Assembly: GCA_043803765.1 (NCBI GenBank)
Contig: JAZDJQ010000017.1
Location: 1-20,244, forward strand
DNA: 20,244 nucleotides
Reading direction: 5' to 3'
DNA from: Candidatus Iainarchaeum sp.
Lineage (GTDB): Archaea; Iainarchaeota; Iainarchaeia; Iainarchaeales; VGJJ01
The notes beneath the pieces are model-generated. The model saw nothing but the letters and a program-made list of their open reading frames with translations, searched no databases and was not told the DNA's origin. Position 1 is the first letter of the stretch. Every line of letters begins with the position of its first letter. The position numbers and the translations under genes were made by a program. Shown one piece after another: positions 4,742-20,244 of the stretch.

Positions 4742-7700
4742 ATGAATCCCTCCCGGATTGCTTTCCTCTACACCCTATTGCTTATTACCTCTCCGCTTGC
4801 CTCCGCACTTCCTTCTACAGAAAATAGTTCATTCCCAAATGAAAATCTTCCACCCATCGCAACGCCCATTCCTTTGATTGAAAATAATCCACCCTCTGAT
4901 ATTCTCATCACATTCCAAGCAACCCCAACAGGAGGAGTATGCCGCATCTCGCAATTAGACCCGGAAGAAGTACAGCGATTGAAGGACGCGATACTCACCC
5001 CCGGTCTCGTTGGAAATGAAATAAGCGCAGGAACCCCGCCAAACAATAACCGAGACACGGTATCCGACACGAATAAACTGCTCATTCCCAATCCCTATGA
5101 CACGGAATCCGCATACCAAAAACAGGTTCCTGTTGAATTGCTTTCACCGGAAGAACTTTCTCCATTACAAAATAATCGAATCAAAGGACCTTTTGCATTC
5201 GGCATATCCTTATACGATTCCCTGCGCGCCGCACGATGCGTAAACGACGAAACATGCGCCGTGTTAGGAGAACAATTGCAATTACGGAACTCGGGAGAAG
5301 GAATCAGCGGAAACATCAAAGACATGTGGAATGCCGTAACAAAAGATTTAGACTCTCCTTCTTCCACGTTTACTGAGGAAGAATCGGCCACCATTCGCGC
5401 TCAGATTCAGAGTGAACAATTGCTAGAAGATGAGGATTCCAATTCGGTTCCCGTTCAGTTCTATTCCCGCGCTACCTCTCCCGATGCCATGAACCACATT
5501 CGAGCCGATAACACATGGCAGTCGGGAATGCTCACCAATTGCGATGATGGAAAATGTATTTTGACATTGTATTCCATGTTTGACAAGTATTTCAATTCCT
5601 GGTATTCCGGCGACTTAGTTATCGGGTCATTCGGTCCTACAGTGTGGGGACAATTCAGAAAAATGTTAGTGAATTCTAAACGATTCAATCTCGTTTCTGG
5701 AAAGCTCGCGGACAAATTGAATCTTGCGAATGTTTGGAGCGGAAAAAAGATAACATCCGCAGGGATTTTTGCAGGCGGTGCCCCGGTTGGACCCAATGAT
5801 TTCTTTTCTAGGATGAAATCGCTCGACAAGGCAACGGGAAGCAAGGGATTCTATGAGATTTCGGGAGCGGATTATTTCCGGAACCTTAAAAAAACAGCAC
5901 AGCGGGACACCGATTTGGGAAAAATGTATGAAGAGATGTTTATCCAAGCCAAGATCACGTCAACAGGAAAAGTATCAGGTATAGAAGATGAATTATTCAA
6001 GGAGGATGGAATCCTTGGGAAGGTAACCAGTTTTGAAAAACGAAAGAAAGTTTTTGCGTACACGGGAAAATTGAAGCAACACGCGGATATAACAGAGGCG
6101 ATTCGTTTGGAGTTAGAAAAACTAGCTAAAAGTGGTAATCCAGCAGAAAGGATTCAGGCAGCAAGAGGATATGCTCGAATATTCAAAGACACGGACGATG
6201 CCTTTAATCTCGACCTGAAAAAAATGTTCAAAGAGTTGCCTGAAGCAGATTTCAGGAAAATCTATGTCAAGGATCCCAACACAGGAGCAACTCGAAGCTT
6301 GTTGGATTTTGATGACAAGTACTTTAACCAAATGTATGACAGTTTTGTTAAGCATGGGGATTTTAGGGATGTAACCATTCTTGAGAGGGATGCAGCGACA
6401 GGAGCGCTTAAGCTATTCCGTGTTCAACCAGTAAGCAACCCAATTGGTACCATTGATATGGTTCGCCTGCAAAATGGGGGGTATCCAGATGATGCGTTAG
6501 TACGCTTATTTAGTGGAGAAAATGTCGCGGCTACGCCTCGAAACCACGATATTATTTTGAAGGATCAGCTGGCAAATGCCGGACAAGTACAATACGTGTA
6601 TGCTGGTGGATTTATTCCATCAAACGAACAATTTTCTCCTAATGCGCTTGCAGAAAAAATCCTAGCAGGAAACATCATGGACGGAAAAGTGAAGAGCTAT
6701 TCCCAAAACATGAATTCGATCTACGATACCATGGTGGCACGGGACTGGGGGAAAGGAACCTACACGAATCTCCTTTCCAAAGGCCTCCAATCCAACGAGA
6801 ACCTTATTTCAAAATACTTCAAGATTTGGGACCCTCATGTTTTACAATCAGGTATTGGAACAACAGGTAAAATGTATTTATATTGGGCATTCGCCCGAGG
6901 GTTTGGATTCGACGATTTTTCGATCTATCAGCTTCCTGATGAATGGACCGAAGTTCAATTTGAACCGGGGGAAACGGAATTCTACAATGATGCGTACATC
7001 GATATTTTTGCGAACGAAGGAAGCGATACAGGAGATATTTTCCAGAAGGTCATCTCGAATCTCCCCATCCCGTATGTTCTTGACAAGTTCGTGGGAGAAT
7101 TCGATACGCTGGACACGGTATGGAATTGGGTGAATGGAGGAATGGCCCGAACCAACCCAGATAACTTGGCCATGTTCATGTTCGGCTCCCCTTCCTGCCC
7201 GGAATGTTCCGCATCACTTGTTTCTCCTGCGAATGAACGATTCGATGTTCAGTATGTTTCTCCCGAAAGCATGAATGGTTTTTTCATTGAACACGCCCAA
7301 ACAAAAGAAGCAACGGAAGAAGGACAATTGCTCATCACCTATTCGCACCACGCCGACATCAAAGGAAGAATGCAGGGAGAACCACTCGATGAGATTAATC
7401 TAGTAAAAGCAAGGCAAGAAGAGGAAACGTGCCAGCAAGTAATGGAAGACATCCCATTCTATGGGAGTGCAGCTAAATTGTTTGGAGCCGAGACTACAGG
7501 AGCGGCTGCCGCAGTGGTAGAGAATCTATTCTATGTCGGGGCGGGCTTTTTTGGCGTGGGACTCATGGGAGTGTTTTTCTCACTTGCAAACCAGGCAGCT
7601 ATCGCCCCCCAGATGGGAGAATGTGTGGATGACAAAGAAGGATATTTTGCTTCATTGTTTGTTCCAAAACCAAAGGAGAAAGAGGGAAAAACAACCGAGC

Positions 7701-9334
7701 TTGAAAAGAATATTTCGGAGAAAGCATTGGATGGGATACGCGAGTTCACCAATACGATTGATTCGAATCATTCCAATCCTTCTCTCTCAGAGAAAGTATT
7801 GCAGGAATCCACAAGCAAAGTACGAGAGTTGATTGACGATGCACAAAAGAATGATGTAGCCGAAGCAGAACTGCGTATTACCGGAAGCTCTTCAGGTTAT
7901 TTACGTGCGGAAGAAGTCATGTATTTCTGGGGAGGAGGAGAAAGCCTTATCGAACCTACTAAATACAACACGGATGGAAAAACCGTTATCGGAACAGAGG
8001 ACGGACACACGATAACACTGGATAATGATAAAGGAACGCTTTCGGTGGACGGACAGATTGTGATTGATGAAGAGCACGCCGACCATGAACGATTAAGCAA
8101 CAAAAACTTAGCCATTCCCGCGGTGGAAATCCCACAACGATTGAATGGATACACATTAGGAATTGATGCCAATTCATTACTATTCAATGTAAACATACGA
8201 GGAGAAGCCGTAGTGCACGATGTAGAATTGTTAGATTGTATTCAATCCGCTATTCTTGCCCAATCCGGTGTCCCGCTCAACTCAAACAATATAAGCGAGG
8301 CATTCGGAAAAACGGATTCCATTGTAACGGACGTTTATCCTAGCATCTCATTTGATACGATTCATAACCGCATTCTCTTAGGAGGACAGGTTCCTCAAAA
8401 TGCGAATGGAGGAAACGCCAGCGTTTCCGTGTATGGGGATCGGCATGTGATTGTAAATGGGGCGCCTAATCCTCTTGCTGGAAACTTCCAATCCGGATTA
8501 TGGGAGAACGGTTCGATTATTTACAAACCCCAAACAAACGAATTGCTCATTTGGTTACGACATCACGCGCAAGCGGTTGTATCCGATCAGGATGTAAAAG
8601 GATTTGATGGAAAACTCACCACACTAAACAATCCACTCACATTCTGCGAGGAACCCGCGATCGATTTGAGTGTGGAAACCGACCCGGCTACGGCAGGAAC
8701 CAAACTGAAAGGAGATAATTTAACAGCAGGATTACAAAAAAATGGCCCATTCCAAGTGTTCGAAACAGAGAACAAGCGGTTCATTTTGTACTCGAAACTA
8801 GTGGATGGGGAATGCAAGGACTACTTCCGTGTCGTGAACAAAGACACGGGAGAAGTATACGACCAAGAAATCACGGGCATTTCACAAAACGAGGACGGAA
8901 CGATTAACATTGCAACAGCAGACGGACAGAAACACACCCTTGAGTTCTCCGACCAGAATGGGAAACCCGTTATCACCTATGATGGACAATCCGCATTATT
9001 GCGCAGTGCCTCAGGACCGGGAGGATCGTTCTATTACGACCCAAGCAAGGGGTTATACTATGCGGAAAACGCCCAATTCGTTCCGCTCAACGAGGGATTC
9101 AAAAACCAAGGAGTGTCATTCCAAGCCAACCCGGATGGAAGCGTAACAGGGAAACCCGGAGACAACGTATTCGTGATTAACCCCGCGCAGGGAGGAGAAG
9201 GACTATTCAACATTCCCAGCCTACCGGAAGAAGCGGGAGGACTAATAGTGATGCTGCTCGTGCTCATGGGAATCATTGTAGGAATATACGTGGATGCGGA
9301 AGAACGAAAAAAGAAAGATCATTCCGGGAGATGA
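4742..9334 (+). CDS. Large (1530 aa) secreted, C-terminally anchored cell-surface protein
   Basis: Has a Sec-type signal peptide (MNPSRIAFLYTLLLITSPLASA), paired Cys and an internal Gly/Ala-rich hydrophobic segment. The C-terminus is IPSLPE, then a TM helix, then RKKK. Confidence 0.85.
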   Translation: MNPSRIAFLYTLLLITSPLASALPSTENSSFPNENLPPIATPIPLIENNPPSDILITFQATPTGGVCRISQLDPEEVQRLKDAILTPGLVGNEISAGTPPNNNRDTVSDTNKLLIPNPYDTESAYQKQVPVELLSPEELSPLQNNRIKGPFAFGISLYDSLRAARCVNDETCAVLGEQLQLRNSGEGISGNIKDMWNAVTKDLDSPSSTFTEEESATIRAQIQSEQLLEDEDSNSVPVQFYSRATSPDAMNHIRADNTWQSGMLTNCDDGKCILTLYSMFDKYFNSWYSGDLVIGSFGPTVWGQFRKMLVNSKRFNLVSGKLADKLNLANVWSGKKITSAGIFAGGAPVGPNDFFSRMKSLDKATGSKGFYEISGADYFRNLKKTAQRDTDLGKMYEEMFIQAKITSTGKVSGIEDELFKEDGILGKVTSFEKRKKVFAYTGKLKQHADITEAIRLELEKLAKSGNPAERIQAARGYARIFKDTDDAFNLDLKKMFKELPEADFRKIYVKDPNTGATRSLLDFDDKYFNQMYDSFVKHGDFRDVTILERDAATGALKLFRVQPVSNPIGTIDMVRLQNGGYPDDALVRLFSGENVAATPRNHDIILKDQLANAGQVQYVYAGGFIPSNEQFSPNALAEKILAGNIMDGKVKSYSQNMNSIYDTMVARDWGKGTYTNLLSKGLQSNENLISKYFKIWDPHVLQSGIGTTGKMYLYWAFARGFGFDDFSIYQLPDEWTEVQFEPGETEFYNDAYIDIFANEGSDTGDIFQKVISNLPIPYVLDKFVGEFDTLDTVWNWVNGGMARTNPDNLAMFMFGSPSCPECSASLVSPANERFDVQYVSPESMNGFFIEHAQTKEATEEGQLLITYSHHADIKGRMQGEPLDEINLVKARQEEETCQQVMEDIPFYGSAAKLFGAETTGAAAAVVENLFYVGAGFFGVGLMGVFFSLANQAAIAPQMGECVDDKEGYFASLFVPKPKEKEGKTTELEKNISEKALDGIREFTNTIDSNHSNPSLSEKVLQESTSKVRELIDDAQKNDVAEAELRITGSSSGYLRAEEVMYFWGGGESLIEPTKYNTDGKTVIGTEDGHTITLDNDKGTLSVDGQIVIDEEHADHERLSNKNLAIPAVEIPQRLNGYTLGIDANSLLFNVNIRGEAVVHDVELLDCIQSAILAQSGVPLNSNNISEAFGKTDSIVTDVYPSISFDTIHNRILLGGQVPQNANGGNASVSVYGDRHVIVNGAPNPLAGNFQSGLWENGSIIYKPQTNELLIWLRHHAQAVVSDQDVKGFDGKLTTLNNPLTFCEEPAIDLSVETDPATAGTKLKGDNLTAGLQKNGPFQVFETENKRFILYSKLVDGECKDYFRVVNKDTGEVYDQEITGISQNEDGTINIATADGQKHTLEFSDQNGKPVITYDGQSALLRSASGPGGSFYYDPSKGLYYAENAQFVPLNEGFKNQGVSFQANPDGSVTGKPGDNVFVINPAQGGEGLFNIPSLPEEAGGLIVMLLVLMGIIVGIYVDAEERKKKDHSGR

Positions 9335-11606: not shown

Positions 11607-13136
11607 TTACGCTCCTGCTAAATACCTTCCAATATGCCATAATAATTGGTTGAGGGGAACCAGCCAAATCACATACGAAAATCCTTTTTTCCATGAACCA
11701 TTCATTACTCCGGCAAACATACTCGCAATAAGGGCGTATATGAAAAGATAACCCATTGCCGCAAGCGTGGCGGTTTCCTGCAACGTTGTAGTTGTTCCCC
11801 CGCTTGAAAAAGAGAGCTGGGCAACCATTCCCGTGGTAAGACCTAGCAGTAATGGAATAAGGAGTCCACCCGCCCCCAAAATAGTGTATTTTTCAATCAT
11901 CAGCATGGCTTCTCTCTCCCTTGTCGCATTATGTTCCATCATGGCATCGCGTGCAAGCTGCATACACGGTTCATCCAATGGATGGCCACTCGCATACGTT
12001 TGAAGCAACACATGCCGTGTCCTTGAAAGAAGAGAACTATTCAATCCTTTTCCTAATTCCTGCAGTGCCCGAGGAACCGTGCTTCCTTTAGAAATAAGCT
12101 GGTGAACTCTTTTCCATTCCTCATGCAAAGGAGAAGGGGTTGCGTTCATCACATGAACAAGGGATTCGGTGAATGGAATCGTTCGAGGAAGAGATGCCCA
12201 CATGAGCAATGAATCCGGCATCTGATTTTCGAGAGAATGAATCCTATTCCTATGTTTCATTTGAATAAAAACGCAGTTTGCTATCCATGGAAAAAGGGCT
12301 GCCAGTCCAAGAAGAATAAAAAAAGTAATATCCGTCGGATGAAAATAAAGATACGCCGACCATCCTATAATGAAAAAACCGCTTCCTTCTAACGCACTGG
12401 ATATGAGGACGCGAGAATACCCTCCTTCTATTCCTTGTTGTGTTGAAATACAATCCATGTGGTTTTTCCATTCTTGGTATTGGACCAGAAAATTTTTGTC
12501 AGAAGAAGAAAAATCAATCCCTCTCACAAGCAAAGGGGTTGTTTCCCACACGATAGCCAAAACGAAAATATCCAATATTGGAAAAAGAATCCATGCGACG
12601 CCCAACAAGTGCCATGCTTCCCACTCTACTTCTAAAAATGCGCTACCAATCGTAGCAAATGACAATACAAAAGCAGGAACAAGTGCCGATACCGCGATGA
12701 ACACAAGAGCGTATAGGGTAAGCATCTCCCCGTATCGTTGAATCGCATTCTGTTCATGCAGCCGCACATTCTCAATTGTTTGATGAAGCGCACGCATTCC
12801 TTCTGCAGTAATACCTGATTTGAGAACATGTACGAGTACACTCCCGCTTTGAGTAAGGGGCTTTGAACCCAATTGGGTAATCATTTTTCCTATGCTTTCT
12901 TCCAGAGACAGTCCGCCCATTTCCACTCGATGAAGGACACGGCGCAATTCTTCCTGCATGGGAAACGGAACAAAAGGAATGCTCTTTTCCAATGCGGTTT
13001 CAGGATGAGAGTGAATACTCAATTCAAGCGCAAACGAAGACAAAAATGGTTCAATACCTGTAACAACTTGTTGAACATACTGCTTTCTCTTCCTCTTTTC
13101 AATGAACGCATGAGCGTATTCAATCCACGCCAGCAT
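11607..13136 (-). CDS. Type II secretion system F / TadC-like type IV pilus platform protein (two T2SSF domains)
   Basis: Two repeats of a cytoplasmic helical domain (EELRRVLHRVEMGGLSLEESI; PLHEEWKRVHQLISKGSTVPRAL), each followed by TM helices. The start is reassigned to ATG 13136 (MLAWIE, 509 aa), which overlaps the end of the ATPase fragment and has a G-rich run upstream. Confidence 0.85.
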   Translation of the reverse strand: MLAWIEYAHAFIEKRKRKQYVQQVVTGIEPFLSSFALELSIHSHPETALEKSIPFVPFPMQEELRRVLHRVEMGGLSLEESIGKMITQLGSKPLTQSGSVLVHVLKSGITAEGMRALHQTIENVRLHEQNAIQRYGEMLTLYALVFIAVSALVPAFVLSFATIGSAFLEVEWEAWHLLGVAWILFPILDIFVLAIVWETTPLLVRGIDFSSSDKNFLVQYQEWKNHMDCISTQQGIEGGYSRVLISSALEGSGFFIIGWSAYLYFHPTDITFFILLGLAALFPWIANCVFIQMKHRNRIHSLENQMPDSLLMWASLPRTIPFTESLVHVMNATPSPLHEEWKRVHQLISKGSTVPRALQELGKGLNSSLLSRTRHVLLQTYASGHPLDEPCMQLARDAMMEHNATREREAMLMIEKYTILGAGGLLIPLLLGLTTGMVAQLSFSSGGTTTTLQETATLAAMGYLFIYALIASMFAGVMNGSWKKGFSYVIWLVPLNQLLWHIGRYLAGA

Positions 13137-13518
13137 CTTTTTCTTCCCCCCGCTTTTTTTCATCCGAATAAAACTGCACCCATTTTTTTTCTGCCGTTGC
13201 CAAACGAGTATGAGGAAAATACAATGGAAACTGTTCTTCCAAGAAACGGGATTTTTTTTCAATCCATTTAGACGAAGAAACATGATACTCGAAAATGGGA
13301 TACACCACAAGTCCCTTTTCAGGAACGAATGAAACTTCCACCACTTGGGTTATTTTTCGTATTTGCCGAAAAGGACTATTCTTTTCCTGTACGGCCCACC
13401 GGCGCTGCACGACCAAAATGTTTACCCACCCTATGTCCTGCGGGGGAATCCCATTCTGTTGTAAACGGGCAATGGTTTCCATTGCCGTGTGCCCATGAAA
13501 GGTAGCATAGGTTCCTTT
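13120..13518 (-). pseudogene. 3' fragment of a CpaF/VirB11/TadA-family pilus assembly ATPase, interrupted by an insertion
   Basis: Reading upstream of ATG 13482 in frame gives KGTYATFHGHTAMETIARL, the His-box of secretion ATPases, followed by ILVVQRR and RKITQVVEV. Five codons further upstream is a TGA (13534-13536). Walker A/B and the N-terminal domain are absent. It sits immediately upstream of the TadC-like gene. Confidence 0.85.
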
Positions 13519-13530
13519 TACACGCGCTAC
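13502..13530. other. Candidate att core site at the left junction of the element
   Basis: Imperfect inverted 11-bp arms GTAGCATAGGT (13502-13512) and ACACGCGCTAC (13520-13530), matching 7/11, flank a 7-bp spacer TCCTTTT exactly where ATPase similarity stops. Confidence 0.5.
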
Positions 13531-13536
13531 ATGTCA

Positions 13537-13546
13537 TATTATATAC
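13537..13546. promoter_or_regulatory. TATA-like element upstream of the integrase, readable on both strands
   Basis: TATTATATA on the plus strand about 35-44 nt before ATG 13581, and TATATAATA on the minus strand facing the ATPase fragment. Confidence 0.35.
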
Positions 13547-13580
13547 TTCAACGTATGCTGTAGAGTCGAGTATAACCCTT

Positions 13581-14936
13581 ATGCCTGACTATTACGCCAA
13601 GTCTGAGAAAAGAGCAAAACTGTTATTATGTAGGCTTTTGGGTCGCCCTTTCCCTGATTATGTGAAAAAAGGTTCCCAATTTTACTACGATGTTCCGGAT
13701 GAAAACAAGCGTGCCATTGAGGCGTTTGATAATCAAATCGTTGCCAGAGGTCTCACGGATTCGTGCCGGATCCACTACCTTCGCACCCTTTGCGATTTTG
13801 CCCATTTTTCCAAAAAGCCCTATTCGCAGGTTACGGCTGAGGATACGATGGCGTTCATTTCGCACATGAAGAATGAGTATGTTTCAAAGAACTATCATAA
13901 AAAGCTCAGCAAAGCCAGCGTTAGCCATGCTAAAACAGCCATCAAGTTCTTTTTCATCAAATTTTATGAGGGCAAAGATACCAAACGTGATATTCGAGGG
14001 ATTCCTCCCATGGTTTCATGGATTAAGCGGGAGCGCGGTGACGAAATTCGCAAACTTCCCAAAGATATGTTGAGCACTCAAGAAGTTCGCCGAATGATTG
14101 AAGCCAGCCCTAATCCACGCGATAAAGCCATTGTCGCTGTCCTCTATGAGTCGGCGTGTCGTTCGGGAGAATTTTTAGAAATGAAAGTCGGGGACGTAAA
14201 ATTCGACCAATACGGTGCGACCGTAGTGGTTAGTGGTAAGACGGGTGATCGCCGCATTCGTTTAGTGGATTCTGTTCCCGATTTACAGGTCTGGATGAAC
14301 AGCCACCCATTGCGTGATGATGATACGGCTCCTGTTTGGACAGCGATTGGAATCCGTGCGAAAAGAGAGTATGAATCCCGAGGCCCAAATAGTCGATTAA
14401 CCTACTACCGAAAACCCTTGTATCCCCGTGGACTAAATCACCGCCTCAATCAAATCGCAAAATGGGCGGGAATCCAAAAAAATATTTACCCCCACCTTTT
14501 CCGCCATTCTCGCCTCACTGAATTGGCCAAAAAAGGATTCCGAGAAGCCGAACTAAAAATCATGGCTGGATGGACAGAATTGAGCAAGAGTCCTGCGACC
14601 TACATTCATTTATCGGGAGCAGATGTGGAAGAAAAAATCCTCCAAATGAATGGCGTTCTCAAAGAAGACGAAATGAGACCCGATATCAACCTCAAGCCAA
14701 TAAAATGTCCACGCTGTACAGAAAAAAACCCTGCTACAGCAAAATTTTGTTACAAGTGCAGCATGGTCTTAGACACCAAGACCGCCGTCGAGCTCGAAAC
14801 CGTCCGAGAACAAGACGACCAAGCCGTCCAAACCATGATGGCACGAATGATCCAAATGCAAAAAACAATGCAAGACTTGTTTGAAGAAATGAGCCAACTC
14901 AAAGCCCAAAATCCAACCGGAGGAAACCAAAAATGA
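13581..14936 (+). CDS. Tyrosine recombinase/integrase with an N-terminal SAM-like domain and a C-terminal zinc ribbon plus coiled coil
   Basis: The catalytic set is intact: R (ESACRSGEF), K (SGKTG), HxxR (YPHLFRHSR), W (MAGW), Y (ATYIHL). The tail has CPRC-x10-CYKC. Confidence 0.95.
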   Translation: MPDYYAKSEKRAKLLLCRLLGRPFPDYVKKGSQFYYDVPDENKRAIEAFDNQIVARGLTDSCRIHYLRTLCDFAHFSKKPYSQVTAEDTMAFISHMKNEYVSKNYHKKLSKASVSHAKTAIKFFFIKFYEGKDTKRDIRGIPPMVSWIKRERGDEIRKLPKDMLSTQEVRRMIEASPNPRDKAIVAVLYESACRSGEFLEMKVGDVKFDQYGATVVVSGKTGDRRIRLVDSVPDLQVWMNSHPLRDDDTAPVWTAIGIRAKREYESRGPNSRLTYYRKPLYPRGLNHRLNQIAKWAGIQKNIYPHLFRHSRLTELAKKGFREAELKIMAGWTELSKSPATYIHLSGADVEEKILQMNGVLKEDEMRPDINLKPIKCPRCTEKNPATAKFCYKCSMVLDTKTAVELETVREQDDQAVQTMMARMIQMQKTMQDLFEEMSQLKAQNPTGGNQK

Positions 14937-15067
14937 GCAACGGACCAAACAACATGACATACTTTTACATGGGAGCACAATACGGGCTACCCATCCTCAT
15001 ACTTGTATTTCTAATAATCATTTTTGGAACACTAATTAGCCTATTAGCACTCTCGACACTCGGCTAA
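14933..15067 (+). CDS. Small single-TM protein (44 aa), not in the ORF track
   Basis: Hand translation gives MSNGPNNMTYFYMGAQYGLPILILVFLIIIFGTLISLLALSTLG. It has an ATGA overlap with the integrase stop and GGAGG shortly upstream. Confidence 0.6.
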   Translation: MSNGPNNMTYFYMGAQYGLPILILVFLIIIFGTLISLLALSTLG

Positions 15068-15131
15068 ATCAAAAAAGAAGCCCAATCTACCAACCATTTT
15101 TGGTGGACGGCACGAAAAAAGACAGAAAAGG

Positions 15132-15164
15132 GCAAACCAAGCAAGACGCGCGGAGTTGGTTTGC
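15132..15164. terminator. Hairpin between convergent genes
   Basis: GCAAACCAA (15132-15140) and TTGGTTTGC (15156-15164) form a 9-bp perfect stem with a 15-nt loop. Confidence 0.4.
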
Positions 15165-15178
15165 AGGGAATAGACTAA

Positions 15179-15844
15179 TTATTCTATGTTTGTGGAAAGG
15201 GAGTCTTGCACATACTCAGTTATTTTTTCTTCCAATTTCTCTGACTTGGTAAATTTTTTCAATGTGTCAAAAAGTGACATTAGTTTTTCTTTAGTAATCA
15301 GATAGGCACCTCCTTCGTGGATTAAATAGAGATTATTGTCTTTGTCCGCTAGTAGATCGTGGTTCGCTCTATTCCTCCAGTTAATTGGTTTGGATAAATC
15401 CGCACAATGTCCTAAATCAACAATAGTTTTGATGTAATTTTCATCAACTTCTATAGCGTTAATTTCCAACTCGCCCGGACATTCTATTTCAGCATTTACC
15501 GTGTTTATTCGTTTTACCTCAGATTGGATTGATTCCTTAATTTCAAATAATGGAATTTGAGATGTGCGATCCGTCAGCATCACGTCTTCAATTTCTTTGA
15601 GCATTTTTTTCAAGTATTCTTCTTTGTTATTAGTTTCAAAAATAATGTCTTCTATTTTATTATTGACATTTAAGTGAATTCGGACTCTATCTTTCCTATC
15701 CAAATGGACTGACAAGTGAACCTCGTTTCCACTATAACTAAAAAAGATCCCAAAACCGCCATCCGCAAACAACTTTTTTAAAATAGAAATCTTGGTCTGC
15801 ATGACTCTGAAATTAATTTTTTTATTGGCTTTTCGACCACTCAT
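15179..15844 (-). CDS. Hypothetical cargo protein
   Basis: AT-rich ORF of ~221 aa with no recognised motif. ATG 15844 (MSGRKANKK) is preferred over TTG 15853. Confidence 0.65.
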   Translation of the reverse strand: MSGRKANKKINFRVMQTKISILKKLFADGGFGIFFSYSGNEVHLSVHLDRKDRVRIHLNVNNKIEDIIFETNNKEEYLKKMLKEIEDVMLTDRTSQIPLFEIKESIQSEVKRINTVNAEIECPGELEINAIEVDENYIKTIVDLGHCADLSKPINWRNRANHDLLADKDNNLYLIHEGGAYLITKEKLMSLFDTLKKFTKSEKLEEKITEYVQDSLSTNIE

Positions 15845-15900
15845 AAATAACAAACGACTTAAATGAAGTTAAAACCGAGCGAAAACCTACTATTTCCCTC

Positions 15901-15959
15901 GCCTCCTCCCGCGTTTTTTCCTTCGTCTCGCGATTGTTTTCGTCTTAAACCCTCGCCCT
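15901..15959 (+). repeat. 59-bp perfect direct repeat, copy 1
   Basis: GCCTCCTCCCGCGTTTTTTCCTTCGTCTCGCGATTGTTTTCGTCTTAAACCCTCGCCCT, identical to 16490-16548. Confidence 0.95.
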
Positions 15960-16059
15960 TGAAAAATACGGATTCTTTATAGGCTGGGCTAAAAACAGTT
16001 ACCGAATCTCCCGATGCCGGCCCGATAACCACGGGCACTGTATTGATTTTCCCTAAAAC

Positions 16060-16428
16060 CTAATTTCCAAAAATCGGCTTTGGGTTATAAATCGGCTTAT
16101 CCCGTATTCCCCCTTTTTTAGCTAATTCACATTGAGGGTATTTTGTTGCCCAATCCTGATTTTTATTTGGGTCTATTGAACATTCAAATTTACACCAAAA
16201 AATCTTTGAACTCTGATCGGGGTCTTGCGATACATTTATGCAATCAGTTATACAATTATTTTGCATGCATTGAATGTCGTTTATTTTAAAAAAATCAATT
16301 TGTGAGTTTACTTGGTTGAGTTGGTTAACTATCCCTTGTGCGGCATACTGTTGAGCGCGTTGTTCAGGGCTTAAACAACCGAGTAAAAAGAACATCAACG
16401 AGACCAAAATCAAAATCATTTTTCTCAT
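16060..16428 (-). CDS. Small Cys-rich lipoprotein
   Basis: Lipobox signal MRKMILILVSLMFFLLGC, six further Cys, and a TATA-like TTTTTATA 22-29 nt upstream. Confidence 0.75.
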   Translation of the reverse strand: MRKMILILVSLMFFLLGCLSPEQRAQQYAAQGIVNQLNQVNSQIDFFKINDIQCMQNNCITDCINVSQDPDQSSKIFWCKFECSIDPNKNQDWATKYPQCELAKKGGIRDKPIYNPKPIFGN

Positions 16429-16489
16429 ACCGTAAAAAGACTTGCCTCATATAAAAATGTTGGGAAATAATCATCTTTACCATCCAATA

Positions 16490-16548
16490 GCCTCCTCCCG
16501 CGTTTTTTCCTTCGTCTCGCGATTGTTTTCGTCTTAAACCCTCGCCCT
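16490..16548 (+). repeat. 59-bp perfect direct repeat, copy 2 (left arm of a long imperfect hairpin)
   Basis: Identical to 15901-15959. Confidence 0.95.
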
Positions 16549-16641
16549 AATCGGGTTCAGCCGTTCCGGCTTCAAGGGTTTTAATGCCGAATCCAACGCC
16601 ATCCGCCTCCAGAAAAAACGCTTAATGGAGGCGATTCTCAA

Positions 16642-16779
16642 ATGGATTTACGACTCAATAAACTCGATATGAATAATTTTACTCATCGGCGCATTGCGCA
16701 AATCATTGCGAAGTGTGAGCGCGGTGAAGAATTAGATAAAAATGAAGGACGTATTTTACGCTCGGAGGTGTTCCGATGA
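16642..16779 (+). CDS. Small hypothetical protein (45 aa), not in the ORF track
   Basis: Hand translation gives MDLRLNKLDMNNFTHRRIAQIIAKCERGEELDKNEGRILRSEVFR. GGAGG at 16627-16631 lies upstream, and the stop overlaps the ArdC-like start (ATGA). Confidence 0.55.
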   Translation: MDLRLNKLDMNNFTHRRIAQIIAKCERGEELDKNEGRILRSEVFR

Positions 16780-17621
16780 ACACCGCACTCGTTTCATTTA
16801 CTCGACCGTTTTCCGTGGCGAAATTAGCGCAATTGGTTCAGAATGGGTTAAACCGTTTGGTTTCTGAAACGGATTCGTTCCGCCAATCCGCCTTGTACCA
16901 ATCCTATTTGGATGCGATGGCCGCGTTTTGGTCGTACTCGTTCCGTAATCAAATGCTTATTCGGCTCCAATGCCCTATTTCTTCACGGGTTGCTGGTTTT
17001 CGTGCATGGAACCGTCTTGGTCGCCGTATTCTGCTCGGCTCGAAGGGCATTAAGATTCTCGCGCCCTACTCTCGAAAATCGGTTCGACTGGATGCGTTGA
17101 CTGGTGAAGAAAGCGAGATTGATTTTACTGCTTTTTTTCCCGTGACGGTTTTCGACGTTTCCCAAACCTACGGAAAAGAATTACCTCGACTCGACATTGA
17201 CCTTCAAGGAAACTCGCACGAATGGATGGTATCTCGATTATCTGCTTTTTGCGAATCGCATCATATTCACCTCGAAACCAAAAATATCGGCGTGAACGGA
17301 TTGTATGGATACAGTCAAGGCGGAACCATCGTATTGAGCGCAAACCAAACACCCAACATGACCGTGAACACGCTCGTGCACGAAATCGCACACGAACTAC
17401 TCCATCATTTTCCCGAAGCAAAAATGTTCTCCAACACCGAACAAGAAATCCAAGCCGAAGGAACCGCATACGTAGTATGCCAAGCGCTCGGTCTACGAAC
17501 AAAGAGCCCGCAATACCTCGCTTCTTATTCCAAAGAAACCAAGCAACTAATAGAACAACTGAATATTATCTCGGGAACGGCGAAAGAAATACTATGGTTT
17601 GTTCAGAAAACAGGTAAATGA
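16776..17621 (+). CDS. ArdC-like ssDNA-binding/antirestriction protein with a C-terminal zincin (ImmA/IrrE-like) metallopeptidase domain
   Basis: YSFRNQMLIRLQ, VAGFRAWNRLGRRI, GIKILAP and VTVFDVSQT match the ArdC N-domain. TLVHEIAHELLH and EIQAEGTAY match the HExxH metallopeptidase. SD sequence GGAGGTG is present. Confidence 0.88.
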   Translation: MNTALVSFTRPFSVAKLAQLVQNGLNRLVSETDSFRQSALYQSYLDAMAAFWSYSFRNQMLIRLQCPISSRVAGFRAWNRLGRRILLGSKGIKILAPYSRKSVRLDALTGEESEIDFTAFFPVTVFDVSQTYGKELPRLDIDLQGNSHEWMVSRLSAFCESHHIHLETKNIGVNGLYGYSQGGTIVLSANQTPNMTVNTLVHEIAHELLHHFPEAKMFSNTEQEIQAEGTAYVVCQALGLRTKSPQYLASYSKETKQLIEQLNIISGTAKEILWFVQKTGK

Positions 17622-17642
17622 TAATACTGTGAAAAGTCAGCG

Positions 17643-18167
17643 TTAAAGATGTTTTTGTTGTTCGGCAATTTCATTAGATATATTCTTGTATATTTTTCCT
17701 GTTTCGATTGTGCGGCATAATTCTATAAGATATTCATGAGTGAATTTTCTGGCTGTTTTTGTTTTAGATGACAATACAATTCTTGGATAGGACATCATTT
17801 TATGTCGCGCTTCATACTCTAGTTTGCCTGATTTATTCAGAAACAACTTGGATACATTGGCTGTAGGCCCATTATAACTCGACTCTAAATTAAGATGGCC
17901 CCACCCGTAAAAAAAAACTTCTACTTCATTATCACCACCAAATATCGTTTTGAATTGTTTTGATTTTTTGAATTTGTTTCGCCAAGACAAAATTTTCTTA
18001 TACAATTCAATTTTTTTGGGCAATAACTTGGATTCATTTGCCCTAAATTCATTTTCTTTTTTCTGTAAGATTAAATCTTCCTTCGTCTCTCTTTCCCGTA
18101 TTATTTTCTTTTTGGTACGATACTTTTGGATTTGCTTATCCAACAATTTGATGGATCCTTTAGACAT
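17643..18167 (-). CDS. Hypothetical Lys-rich cargo protein
   Basis: AT-rich 174-aa ORF with an N-terminal coiled-coil-like segment and no recognised family. Confidence 0.65.
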   Translation of the reverse strand: MSKGSIKLLDKQIQKYRTKKKIIRERETKEDLILQKKENEFRANESKLLPKKIELYKKILSWRNKFKKSKQFKTIFGGDNEVEVFFYGWGHLNLESSYNGPTANVSKLFLNKSGKLEYEARHKMMSYPRIVLSSKTKTARKFTHEYLIELCRTIETGKIYKNISNEIAEQQKHL

Positions 18168-18212
18168 AAAAAATTAATAAAAGCGCTCTATATTAATCTA
18201 TTGTTTTTAATC

Positions 18213-18336
18213 GGCTCTGTTGAAAGTCTCATTTTCAAGGAGATTGGTTCACCTGATTAACGGGCGTTTTACCTTTGAACAGGCTTGTTAAATGTTATTC
18301 ATCTGCATTCGGTTCAGGGACATTTTCAACAGAGCC
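18213..18336. mobile_element. 124-bp MITE with terminal inverted repeats and a target-site duplication
   Basis: The TIRs GGCTCTGTTGAAA (18213-18225) and TTTCAACAGAGCC (18324-18336) are flanked by the direct repeat GTTTTTAATC (18203-18212 and 18337-18346). It is too short to encode a transposase. Confidence 0.9.
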
Positions 18337-18385
18337 GTTTTTAATCCATTAAAATAAAGACCAAAGGCTCGGGCGTACTATTATC

Positions 18386-18895
18386 TTATTCGAATTGTAT
18401 TTTTCCGTTTTCGGCTATTCTTGCGATTTGCCATTCGTATTTTTTTTCTTTTACTACTTGGTGTAGTTGTTCTCGCAGGGTGTTGATTTGTGGGTTTTTC
18501 AGGTTTTTTGATAGAAGTATTATTTCGTCTACTGTTTCGTTTTTGGTCATTCCGTCGAAGACCACGAAGTCGATTGGATTCAATATTGATTTCACATCGT
18601 ATGGGTTTATTTTTAGTTCTTTAAAGATTGGCGAGATGGCTTTTCCTACTATTTGTTCTGCCCCCAATCTCCCTTTTTCTATTTGGATTTTTTGAATGTT
18701 TTCTTCTTTTTCCTCGAATGATTCAACATTTTTTTCTAACACGTTCACTTGTTTTTCGTAGTCGTCCAGCCACGTTTTTGGTGTTGGGGTCTTGGTGAAT
18801 ATTCGGAGGTCTGATACTCTTACTATTTCGTTACAGCATGGGCAGAGGCATAGTATTTTTCTGAATTCTTGGTATTCTTCTCCTAATCCTTTCAT
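18386..18895 (-). CDS. Holliday junction resolvase-like (Endonuc_Holl) protein, catalytically degenerate, with an N-terminal Cys cluster
   Basis: NPIDFVVFDG is present, but the ExK motif is replaced (EIILLSKN). It has CLCPCC at the N-terminus and a coiled coil, and an ATGA overlap with the upstream paralog. Confidence 0.75.
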   Translation of the reverse strand: MKGLGEEYQEFRKILCLCPCCNEIVRVSDLRIFTKTPTPKTWLDDYEKQVNVLEKNVESFEEKEENIQKIQIEKGRLGAEQIVGKAISPIFKELKINPYDVKSILNPIDFVVFDGMTKNETVDEIILLSKNLKNPQINTLREQLHQVVKEKKYEWQIARIAENGKIQFE

Positions 18896-19383
18896 TTTAC
18901 CACCTTGAAGGATACTTTTTTGTCGTTTACTGCGTCTTTGACGGCCTTTTGATGCTCGTTCAGCCGAGCGGTTCCTGTTTTTATTTCAATGAAACTCATT
19001 GATGCTATTTTGTTATTGCTGCAACCATTGAACGTTATCATGTCAATTGGTTCCCCTAAAAACCGGCAATCGGGTAGCGCCCATTTGAAATCCTTTAAAA
19101 TCGGGAAGACCACTTCCATTTTTTTACCAATGTTAACTGTTCTGGCCGTAATTTCGGATTTTTTAGTGTCTAACAACGATTTTTTCCTTTTCTCAAAATC
19201 CTTCTTTTGTTGCTCAAAATCGTTCAATAAACGTGTGCGCACTTCCAACGCTTCGGAAGGAAAAGACTTCGTACCATCAAACAAGAATGCATCGCCCAAC
19301 TTAAAACTCTCATTACACGAAGGGCACTCCGCATAAAGCTTCGAACCCTTTAATTCAAGAATCGTTTCTTTGGTACCAGCCAT
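18892..19383 (-). CDS. Holliday junction resolvase-like PD-(D/E)xK endonuclease (Endonuc_Holl) with an N-terminal CxxC
   Basis: DCRFLGEPIDMITFNG...FIEIKTGTARLNEHQKAVKDAV is the family signature with the E, D and ExK residues intact. CPSC lies near the N-terminus. Confidence 0.85.
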   Translation of the reverse strand: MAGTKETILELKGSKLYAECPSCNESFKLGDAFLFDGTKSFPSEALEVRTRLLNDFEQQKKDFEKRKKSLLDTKKSEITARTVNIGKKMEVVFPILKDFKWALPDCRFLGEPIDMITFNGCSNNKIASMSFIEIKTGTARLNEHQKAVKDAVNDKKVSFKVVK

Positions 19384-19394
19384 TTTTTCACACC

Positions 19395-20069
19395 CTATTG
19401 TTCCGTGTAGCTCCTAAATTTTGCTTCCACTTGATCACCTGAAGATCGGGCAATTCCAACTAATTCAATTTTATTGTACGCGGTTAAATCAAGGTTCCCG
19501 GTGTACACCAATATCGTGTTGTAGTATACTTCATAGCCATTGGGGATTTTTTTGATTTTATAGGTGTCAAAGTTTGCTGACGGGGGGTCAGGAGAAACGT
19601 ATTTGAAGTGGTTGACCCCGTTTATTTTTTCCACAATGAACACGTTCGTGTTATATTGCGGGTCAGTAATATCGCGATGCTTTTCCACAACAAGTACATT
19701 TTGACTATCCTTCGTGAACCAGATGCTTGCGCCGGACGCACTGGCGGGTAAATCAGCCGACGCGATATCAACTTGCGCGGAATTACCATTTAACCGCTTG
19801 ACAATTCTCCCTTCACTATTCCAATAACTACTGGTCGCGGCTCCTGCAATCGTTACAATTTGATTGGTATAGGAAACTGCTACCCCATTCATTTGGGTTT
19901 GGTTCCAACAGAATCCACTCCAAAAAAAGTTTTGCGACTGGCAAATATGATAGGGCGCCGTAGTCAAAACAAACTGCGCAGAAACACTTTGAAAAGAAAG
20001 AAGCAGGATTGAAATAAACAGTAACAATGGCAGGAAATTTTGGTGTTTTCGATAAGCTTTCTCAATCAT
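19395..20069 (-). CDS. Secreted beta-rich hypothetical protein
   Basis: Signal peptide ending QSVSA/Q and a beta-strand pattern (KIKKIPNGYEVYYN) loosely like a lectin-type sandwich. Confidence 0.7.
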   Translation of the reverse strand: MIEKAYRKHQNFLPLLLFISILLLSFQSVSAQFVLTTAPYHICQSQNFFWSGFCWNQTQMNGVAVSYTNQIVTIAGAATSSYWNSEGRIVKRLNGNSAQVDIASADLPASASGASIWFTKDSQNVLVVEKHRDITDPQYNTNVFIVEKINGVNHFKYVSPDPPSANFDTYKIKKIPNGYEVYYNTILVYTGNLDLTAYNKIELVGIARSSGDQVEAKFRSYTEQ

Positions 20070-20132
20070 ACTAGATCTACCTTACCACAAAGAATAAAAA
20101 CAGCGACTCTGGGACAAAATTATTGGGTCTTT

Positions 20133-20243
20133 TTAGTTCAAAATTACCACGTATGCTCGTTTATTGACGTATTTTAGTGGGACGTCGGCTTTGGCTGAGT
20201 TTCCGAACGGTGTGACGGTTCGTTCGAGAATAATCGTCACTTT
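20133..20243 (-). CDS. DUF2080-family (transposon-associated, AbrB-like) small protein, 5'-truncated by the window edge
   Basis: Hand translation gives ...KVTIILERTVTPFGNSAKADVPLKYVNKRAYVVILN*. The VTPFGNSAKxDVP...KRxYV pattern matches the family. Not in the ORF track. Confidence 0.8.
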   Translation of the reverse strand, partial: KVTIILERTVTPFGNSAKADVPLKYVNKRAYVVILN

Positions 20244-20244
20244 T

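Follow-up and report, generated by a model that had tools for sequence, protein, structure and literature searches.

Contig C17 (JAZDJQ010000017.1) of a Candidatus Iainarchaeum genome (assembly GCA_043803765.1, here G000; 1.02 Mb, 19 contigs, 93.5% complete, 1.5% contamination) forms in its entirety the window of 20,244 nucleotides (nt) analyzed here. In this window the 3' third of a CpaF/TadA/FlaI-type ATPase gene adjoins the integrase gene of a mobile element, and the 5' half of the same gene lies beyond the far end of that element on another contig, C7. The insertion is precise, in-frame, recurrent and integrase-associated, and it lies in one gene. For the ATPase motifs we use the names His box and Asp box. 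The junction and its surroundings comprise the following features.

11607 to 13136, minus strand: gene for a TadC/T2SSF-like membrane platform protein of 509 amino acids (aa; PF00482, 1.7e-13), the downstream partner of the split ATPase
13120 to 13518, minus strand: 3'-terminal third of the split ATPase gene (CpaF/TadA/FlaI type), beginning at the K-G-T codons in the His-box region and running to the natural stop free of frameshifts and internal stops
13511 to 13518, minus strand: right attachment site (attR), an 8-nt crossover core AAAGGAAC, with an identical copy in the left site (attL) at C7 26624-26631
13519 to 13580, no strand assigned: element arm of 62 bp between core and integrase, with CGTGTA abutting the core
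13581 to 14936, plus strand: tyrosine integrase of 451 aa with a C-terminal zinc ribbon (PF00589)

On the minus strand, a TGA at 13536-13534 precedes the frame of the ATPase fragment, which stays open from 13533 until its stop at 13120; its translation reads HVARV, followed by KGTYATFHGHTAMETIARL (KGTYATFHG...). The first-pass annotation of the window, made from the sequence alone, had described the frame as free of decay from KGTYATFHG to its stop, the TadC-like gene as intact, and similarity as ending about 60 bp before the integrase at a junction devoid of tRNA genes. All of this holds: the distance from the junction at 13519 to the integrase ATG measures 62 bp, and no tRNA gene is present anywhere in the 20,244-nt window. 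The fragment alone produced no T2SSE match in Pfam; it resembles two paralogous ATPases of G000 in their C-terminal parts (41.5% identity over 65 aa, E 0.001, and 35.9% over 39 aa) and corresponds to residues ~323-455 of intact orthologues. In all ten intact same-genus orthologues examined, the C terminus aligns with the fragment from residue 6, the K of KGT. The ATG of the TadC-like gene overlaps the ATPase stop, and in genome G007 a TadC-like gene likewise follows directly behind an intact ATPase gene.

A T2SSE family search of the whole G000 genome returned nine matches. The K-G-T codons that begin the window fragment also end the 5' half of the split gene, which occupies C7 25658..26631. 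It is a 348-codon open frame, with a product of 337 aa from the first ATG that contains the N-terminal domain, the Walker A motif GSGKTT and an RMRPDRVVVGE block, stops at position 234 of the 370 of the model, and terminates in ILAGQG-KGT, after which come 12 unrelated residues before the stop codon. It matches PF00437 (T2SSE) with 104 bits (cut-off 24.9, 9e-30), compared with 121.7 bits for an intact orthologue. None of the named subfamilies (TadA, FlaI, VirB11, PilB) was reached in NCBIfam (TIGR03819, 168 versus 373 bits; FlaI, 158 versus 550 bits), the split ATPase scoring below every equivalog cut-off, while its homologues, which come from records of Candidatus Diapherotrites or Iainarchaeum archaea, are labelled as CpaF family in public sources. 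The matching 5' half that the first-pass annotation had postulated therefore exists, with a Walker A motif and a T2SSE match, although on contig C7 and not within the window.

On each of the 10 intact same-genus orthologues examined, the two halves align as contiguous stretches, and the K codon of KGT is the same from each side; an eleventh locus of this set, L014 of genome G004, is itself split. When the halves are joined in silico at the core, they give 1365 nt and a 454-aa frame without an internal stop, collinear with the intact orthologues, which means that precise excision would restore the open reading frame (ORF), as a gene switch would demand. The alignment of the joined frame with the 448-aa orthologue of G007 has no gap, with 35 identities in the 50 positions around the junction. 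The gene order at the empty site of G007, UPP synthase-DUF192-ATPase-TadC, equals the left flank on C7 plus the host flank in the window. No second copy of the split orthologue is found elsewhere in G000, which retains at least four other full-length T2SSE ATPase frames, and an orthologue is present in 41 of the 41 related genomes searched. The proposals that an element had integrated inside the ATPase gene and that the halves would rejoin in frame are thus borne out, both halves ending at the same K-G-T codons within a common 8-nt core.

The sequence common to attL and attR is exactly AAAGGAAC, which encodes K-G-T in the AGQG-KGT-x-x-TFHG region. The chromosomal site reads AA[AG]GGAAC in all ten intact same-genus orthologues, six of which agree exactly with the G000 core. 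At the far element end, an imperfect inverted partner of the hexamer CGTGTA is found 1 nt past the core, leaving a 9-nt spacer. Related elements of genomes G004 and G193, described below, have cores of 12 and 8 nt, respectively, compared with 8 nt in G000, and the hexamer arms are CGTGTA/TCCACG in G000 (5 of 6 positions complementary), CATGTA/TACACG in G004 (5 of 6) and GAAGAT/ATCTTC in G193 (6 of 6). The arms vary among integrase subclades and the spacer tracks the host codons, as would be expected for core-type binding sites. Within the arm, a TATA-like box (13539-13545, ~24 nt from the core) is conserved in four of four elements (G000, G004, G118 and G193) and may be the promoter of the integrase or an outward promoter directed toward the 3' fragment and the TadC gene.

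The integrase matches PF00589 with 64.8 bits (cut-off 27.1) and an N-terminal SAM-like domain with 37.9 bits (cut-off 27). Its residues R194, K220, H305, R308, W331 and Y341 are invariant in five of five aligned relatives, and the R, HxxR and H/W positions align to XerA (4a8e), the tyrosine lying beyond the printed alignment. The enzyme, which had been called catalytically complete, indeed has the full R-K-HxxR-H/W-Y set. Its top NCBIfam match is XerA_Arch; since the score of 105.5 bits lies below the cut-off of 220, it is not XerA itself. The integrase is of the classical and not of the SSV type, as its gene stays whole after integration.

The element runs from the core to the right end of the window and continues on C7 from 55364 down to 26632, to a total of 35,459 bp. 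Its extent and the insertion sequence (IS) at the contig end are given by three features.

13519 to 20244, no strand assigned: window portion of the element, 6,726 bp, continued as C7 55364..26632
20096 to 20104, plus strand: 9-bp target-site duplication AAAAACAGC, with a second copy directly behind the IS on C7
20105 to 20244, plus strand: left end of a 1.26-kb IS with the 11-bp terminal inverted repeat GACTCTGGGAC

Contig C17 ends at 20244 because a copy of the IS lies there. Inside the element, this IS spans C7 54245-55504 and contains a 394-aa ORF, which has no Pfam or NCBIfam family match; at least two identical copies exist in G000, the second between the right ends of C16 and C14. The contig ends overlap by ~140 nt, in that the right end of C17 matches the right end of C7 and also that of C16 (terminal 141 nt); the overlapping sequence is one IS end, and the other IS end is common to C7 and C14. 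The IS copy between C17 and C7 is bordered by the duplication AAAAACAGC, and that between C16 and C14 by a different one. It follows from the contig-end overlap and the paired 9-bp duplications that the element is one 35,459-bp piece. The same IS and duplications rule out population heterogeneity or an inversion as the cause of the three-way contig end (C17, C16 and C7). The G000 assembly is also broken by a second multi-copy repeat, probably another IS or a repeated island, which accounts for at least seven contig ends per side (C7_L, C2_L, C8_L, C9_L, C18_R and the inside of C12 and C15 on one side; C10_R, C15_R, C19_L, C2_R, C3_R, C4_L and C5_R on the other).

The same arrangement recurs in other members of the order, in which we surveyed 196 genomes, G000 included. 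In G004, which belongs to another species of the same genus, a 92% identical integrase adjoins that genome's own 3' ATPase fragment, and the 5' half, located on another contig, stops at the same codons as in G000 and has a similar tail; here the 12-nt core given above is the identical block. Integrase, ArdC, pilin and VirB4 modules are common to the elements of G000 and G004 and are arranged in one order. That the integrases are 92% identical, while the two host ATPase halves are 53% and 37% identical, points to horizontal movement of the element into the same site. Integrases of at least 48% identity occur in 6 of the 196 genomes (G000 included), in a patchy spread. The next-closest enzymes are those of G118, G193 and G183 (48-50% identical by alignment, 46-50% by tblastn) and a partial one in G121 (53% over the match), and an ATPase fragment adjoins each of the four. 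In G193, from another family of the order (integrase 50% identical), both halves were found, split at K-G-S with the 8-nt core AAGGGAAG; its integrase ORF runs into the contig end, those of G000 and G004 being whole. In G118, the 3' fragment beside the integrase starts at the same codon, and the 5' half was not found in this 67%-complete genome. In G183 (integrase 49% identical), the break in the same gene lies ~60 codons nearer to its start, at P-E-I of EETPEI, and the core is CCGGAAATC; both parts were recovered (L068, C1:407-1102, and L045, C81), which defines a second landing site in one gene.

Homologous integrases thus repeatedly flank split copies of this ATPase gene, as the first-pass annotation had suggested they might, at the same codons in G004, G118 and G193 and at a second motif in G183; the misassembly at ~13520 that it had considered is excluded by the same junction architecture in the independent assemblies of G004, G118 and G193. 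Of the query and the 120 public proteins that match the 5' half best, 80 carry the motif G-[QH]-G-[KRQ]-G-[TS], and five of these 80 (the query, the G004 protein, P0019, P0085 and P0095) end just past the motif, each in a short tail without homology.

In a tree of 63 integrases, the four enzymes inserted at the His box form one clade (Shimodaira-Hasegawa approximate likelihood ratio test, SH-aLRT, 99), with that of G183 nearby. Fourteen of the 15 tRNA-adjacent relatives fall elsewhere in the tree, and the remaining one, L118, sits on a long branch inside the same 23-row clade. Among more distant homologues, tRNA genes were found near the integrase at 8 of 17, 3 of 17 and 6 of 44 loci in three locus sets. 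The earlier proposal that this integrase targets the His-box coding sequence is in agreement with the K-G-T core, with the single clade of the four enzymes and with the location of distant relatives at tRNA genes. Two small neighboring clades (L050 and L058; G096 and G188) sit directly after the stop of an scpA-like gene, a label given by eye and without a family search. This location suggests that the wider integrase clade prefers protein-gene targets. A search of metagenome contigs with the two 92% identical integrases yielded no closer relatives, and a search with five integrases gave 41 loci, none with more than 43% identity over a long match. At none of these 41 loci does an ATPase fragment lie beside the integrase, the sole ATPase match (L107) being ~6 kb off, and several loci have tRNAs. 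Viral contigs gave three distant integrase loci, and genome contigs gave the G004 record only.

Further genes of the element in the window are listed below, followed by those on C7.

14933 to 15067, plus strand: gene for a 44-aa membrane peptide, overlapping the integrase stop and kept behind related integrases
16776 to 17621, plus strand: ArdC-N and M78 peptidase-like protein (anti-restriction type), with an 83% identical copy in the G004 element
18386 to 19383, minus strand: two tandem overlapping Endonuc_Holl (PF10107) paralogues, element cargo

The 44-aa peptide has the N terminus MSNGPNN.TYFYMGA.YGLP and then a hydrophobic helix, and similar ORFs follow related integrases at six other loci (E < 1e-4), tRNA-targeting ones included. 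On C7, the element carries a complete Hma defense system (42401-51442; L067 6401-15442), with HmaA and HmaC at E 0 and HmaB at E 1e-290 (PADLOC), beside which lie AbiEi/AbiEii and a Cas4-like PD-(D/E)XK nuclease; a TrmB-type regulator and a weak RepD-like match are also present. The transfer genes consist of a VirB4-like ATPase (CD1110 family, 317.7 bits versus a cut-off of 325; TraG P-loop, 1.8e-25), a pilin (T4SS_pilin/TrbC, VirB2-type, 3.5e-12) and a PrgI-like, VirB3-like protein (25.3 bits versus a cut-off of 27), so that the element has the VirB4-type ATPase and the mating-channel and pilin genes expected of an ICE (integrative and conjugative element). No FlaI, TadC or VirD4 gene was found inside it. 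The term conjugative is used here on the strength of the VirB2-, VirB3- and VirB4-like genes and ArdC, and we speak of a conjugation-type element and not of a proven ICE because no relaxase or coupling protein was recognized. On the host side of the window, positions 4742-9334 hold a 1530-aa ORF without a Pfam match at E 0.01.

The observations can be explained by a single event, which we consider very probable: the element inserted by means of its own integrase at the K-G-T core of the ATPase gene, this integrase clade being specialized on the gene and the motif serving as its landing site. In this process, a 35.5-kb conjugation-type element would have integrated into the CpaF/TadA/FlaI-type ATPase gene ahead of the TadC-like gene, through site-specific recombination by its classical tyrosine integrase at the 8-nt core encoding K-G-T, and would have left behind a promoter-less 3' third and a 5' gene that closes with 12 foreign residues. 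As long as the element stays there, the ATPase should be inactive, because the truncated 5' product is without the His-box part downstream of K-G-T and without the last 130 residues of the C terminus; TadC, being translationally coupled, is probably silenced as well, since it and the 3' fragment would be separated from their promoter. The disruption would be reversible in principle, because the core is present at both ends and precise excision would restore the gene. As to the choice of target, the element would use a near-invariant motif-coding stretch as a landing site across many divergent DPANN hosts, and the simplest reason is that hosts with proteins of otherwise 37-55% identity hardly differ in these codons. 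Targeting of the ATPase gene by the integrase is accordingly supported by the recurrence in other genomes.

Several observations weigh against this explanation or limit it: (i) the core is just 8 nt long, and no dyad symmetry that would match the element's hexamer arms is seen at the chromosomal site; (ii) in G121 (L053, G121:C86), an integrase truncated at residue 258 abuts the ATPase 3' fragment at the contig end, a locus that may be rearranged, decayed or chimeric; (iii) a Pfam scan of 33 element ORFs, which small ORFs and divergent families could escape, turned up neither a relaxase nor a separate coupling protein; and (iv) all relatives searched have the orthologue, an argument that losing it permanently is costly, and one that gives a switch some room.

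This last point leads to the alternative that the host, or host and element together, turn the pilus machine on and off by regulated, non-lethal excision and re-integration of the element, as the first-pass annotation had favored. The perfect ORF that excision would rebuild, the halves free of stops and frameshifts in G000, G004 and G193, and the conservation of the gene in the relatives are all in line with such a switch. So is a comparison of P0007 and P0019, two carriers with closely similar element tails, whose 5' halves differ at 1 of 80 columns of at least 95% conservation versus 53 of 91 variable columns, although this purifying pattern is equally expected from recent independent insertions. 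On the other hand, domesticated switches are usually vertically inherited and degenerate, whereas this element is complete, is horizontally mobile as judged from the contrast between integrase and host ATPase identities, and is patchily distributed in the order; in addition, the remaining full-length T2SSE ATPase frames of G000 speak against a switch as well as against the sabotage discussed next. Despite the precedents of the Listeria comK prophage (PMC7397523) and the cases in the accessible parts of PMC8987985, we therefore regard a host switch as quite improbable. A parasitic knockout, which the first-pass annotation had named as its own alternative, remains the simpler reading, and a selfish element with a conserved-motif landing site fits the data at least as well.

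A knockout could still be of use to the element, if the pilus machine endangers it, either through uptake-driven recombinational curing or as an entry route for rivals and viruses, and its disabling were the object of the targeting. That related integrases strike two different conserved motifs of one gene, and that the target is a pilus-type ATPase with its platform, agrees with such sabotage; there is a parallel in bacterial elements found in comYC, comFA, comM and comK, where Croucher et al. (2016) used the two-site pattern in comFA to argue for selection on the function of the target (PMC4774983, accessible parts), and type IV-like pili have been discussed in relation to natural transformation in Methanococcus (PMC10133366, accessible parts). 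Against this, the ATPase falls below every NCBIfam equivalog cut-off, and the conserved motif codons may be attractive simply as invariant sequence, so that we are inclined to doubt deliberate sabotage. By far the least credible alternative is an artefact of assembly or binning, in which the halves would come from different strains or paralogues and no genome would hold the insertion. Such an artefact could be suspected from a metagenome-type assembly in 19 contigs, with the halves on separate contigs and with 141 nt shared between the ends of C17 and C16. However, the two-copy IS explains the three-way end, the 9-bp duplications pair C17 with C7 and C16 with C14, the same split is present in independent assemblies, and G000 contains no intact orthologue elsewhere. 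Insertion by the element's own integrase at the conserved codons, as set out above, hence remains our preferred explanation.

Among known systems, the ICEs of Thaumarchaeota with classical (pNOB8/lambda-type) integrases, as described in the accessible parts of PMC6563490 and PMC8371274, are the closest in organization: they have an intact integrase gene beside one att site and short direct-repeat cores, and they also carry a VirB4-type ATPase, a pilin, small membrane proteins, IS insertions and defense cargo. Their targets are tRNA genes in 39 of 68 cases, intergenic regions in 15 and the 3'-distal ends of protein genes in 14 (PMC6563490). In contrast, the G000 site lies ~70% into the gene, in a catalytic motif, its use removes ~130 residues, the host belongs to DPANN, and the transfer genes resemble the bacterial CD1110/PrgI type. 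Archaeal protein-gene targets are described as sporadic (PMC8371274) and, in Thaumarchaeota, as 3'-distal (PMC6563490), and the accessible parts of these two papers mention neither pilus ATPases nor a clade specialized on such a target. The literature found on DPANN or Iainarchaeota with the terms integrase, conjugative and mobilome contained no description of this case; further targets within protein genes may stand in Table S2 of PMC6563490.

Bacterial elements in comYC, comFA (two sites), comM and comK, as far as the accessible parts of PMC4774983 show, are similar in that a coding sequence is truly disrupted and that one gene can offer two sites; they differ in being mostly prophages with a documented link to transformation, whereas here the host is archaeal and the element conjugation-type. 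The Listeria comK prophage (PMC7397523) and the elements in sporulation, nitrogen-fixation and DNA-repair genes (PMC8987985), again according to the accessible parts, share with the present case a recombinase-bearing element that splits an ORF, which precise excision rebuilds; regulated excision has been demonstrated in those systems, while in G000 excision is a prediction from the in silico join. Many of these excisable switch elements are defective and have lost horizontal transfer (PMC8987985), whereas the G000 element looks fully mobile and recently transferred.

To conclude, elements that split and rebuild genes are known in bacteria, and the archaeal literature, in the accessible parts of PMC6563490 and PMC8371274, holds sporadic and mostly 3'-distal protein-gene targets; the present system adds a defined chromosomal attachment site (attB), a short core, clear pairs of integrase and arm sequences, and a naturally occurring set of hosts in which the site is either empty or filled, which makes both the target switching of archaeal integrases and the cost or benefit of losing a pilus machine in an obligate symbiont testable. 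A further point is the movement between DPANN species of a conjugation-type element that has transfer genes of bacterial appearance and an Hma defense system. A bolder extension, which we put forward tentatively and think rather unlikely to hold in full, is that a clade of DPANN conjugative-type elements has evolved integrases aimed at two catalytic-motif codon blocks of a single conserved, Tad-like pilus ATPase, and that carriage reversibly switches the pilus machine off, shielding the element from curing driven by DNA uptake or from rivals, or restoring the machine only upon excision for transfer. If true, the conflict of mobile elements with uptake or pilus machinery, known from bacteria, would have its first example in archaea.

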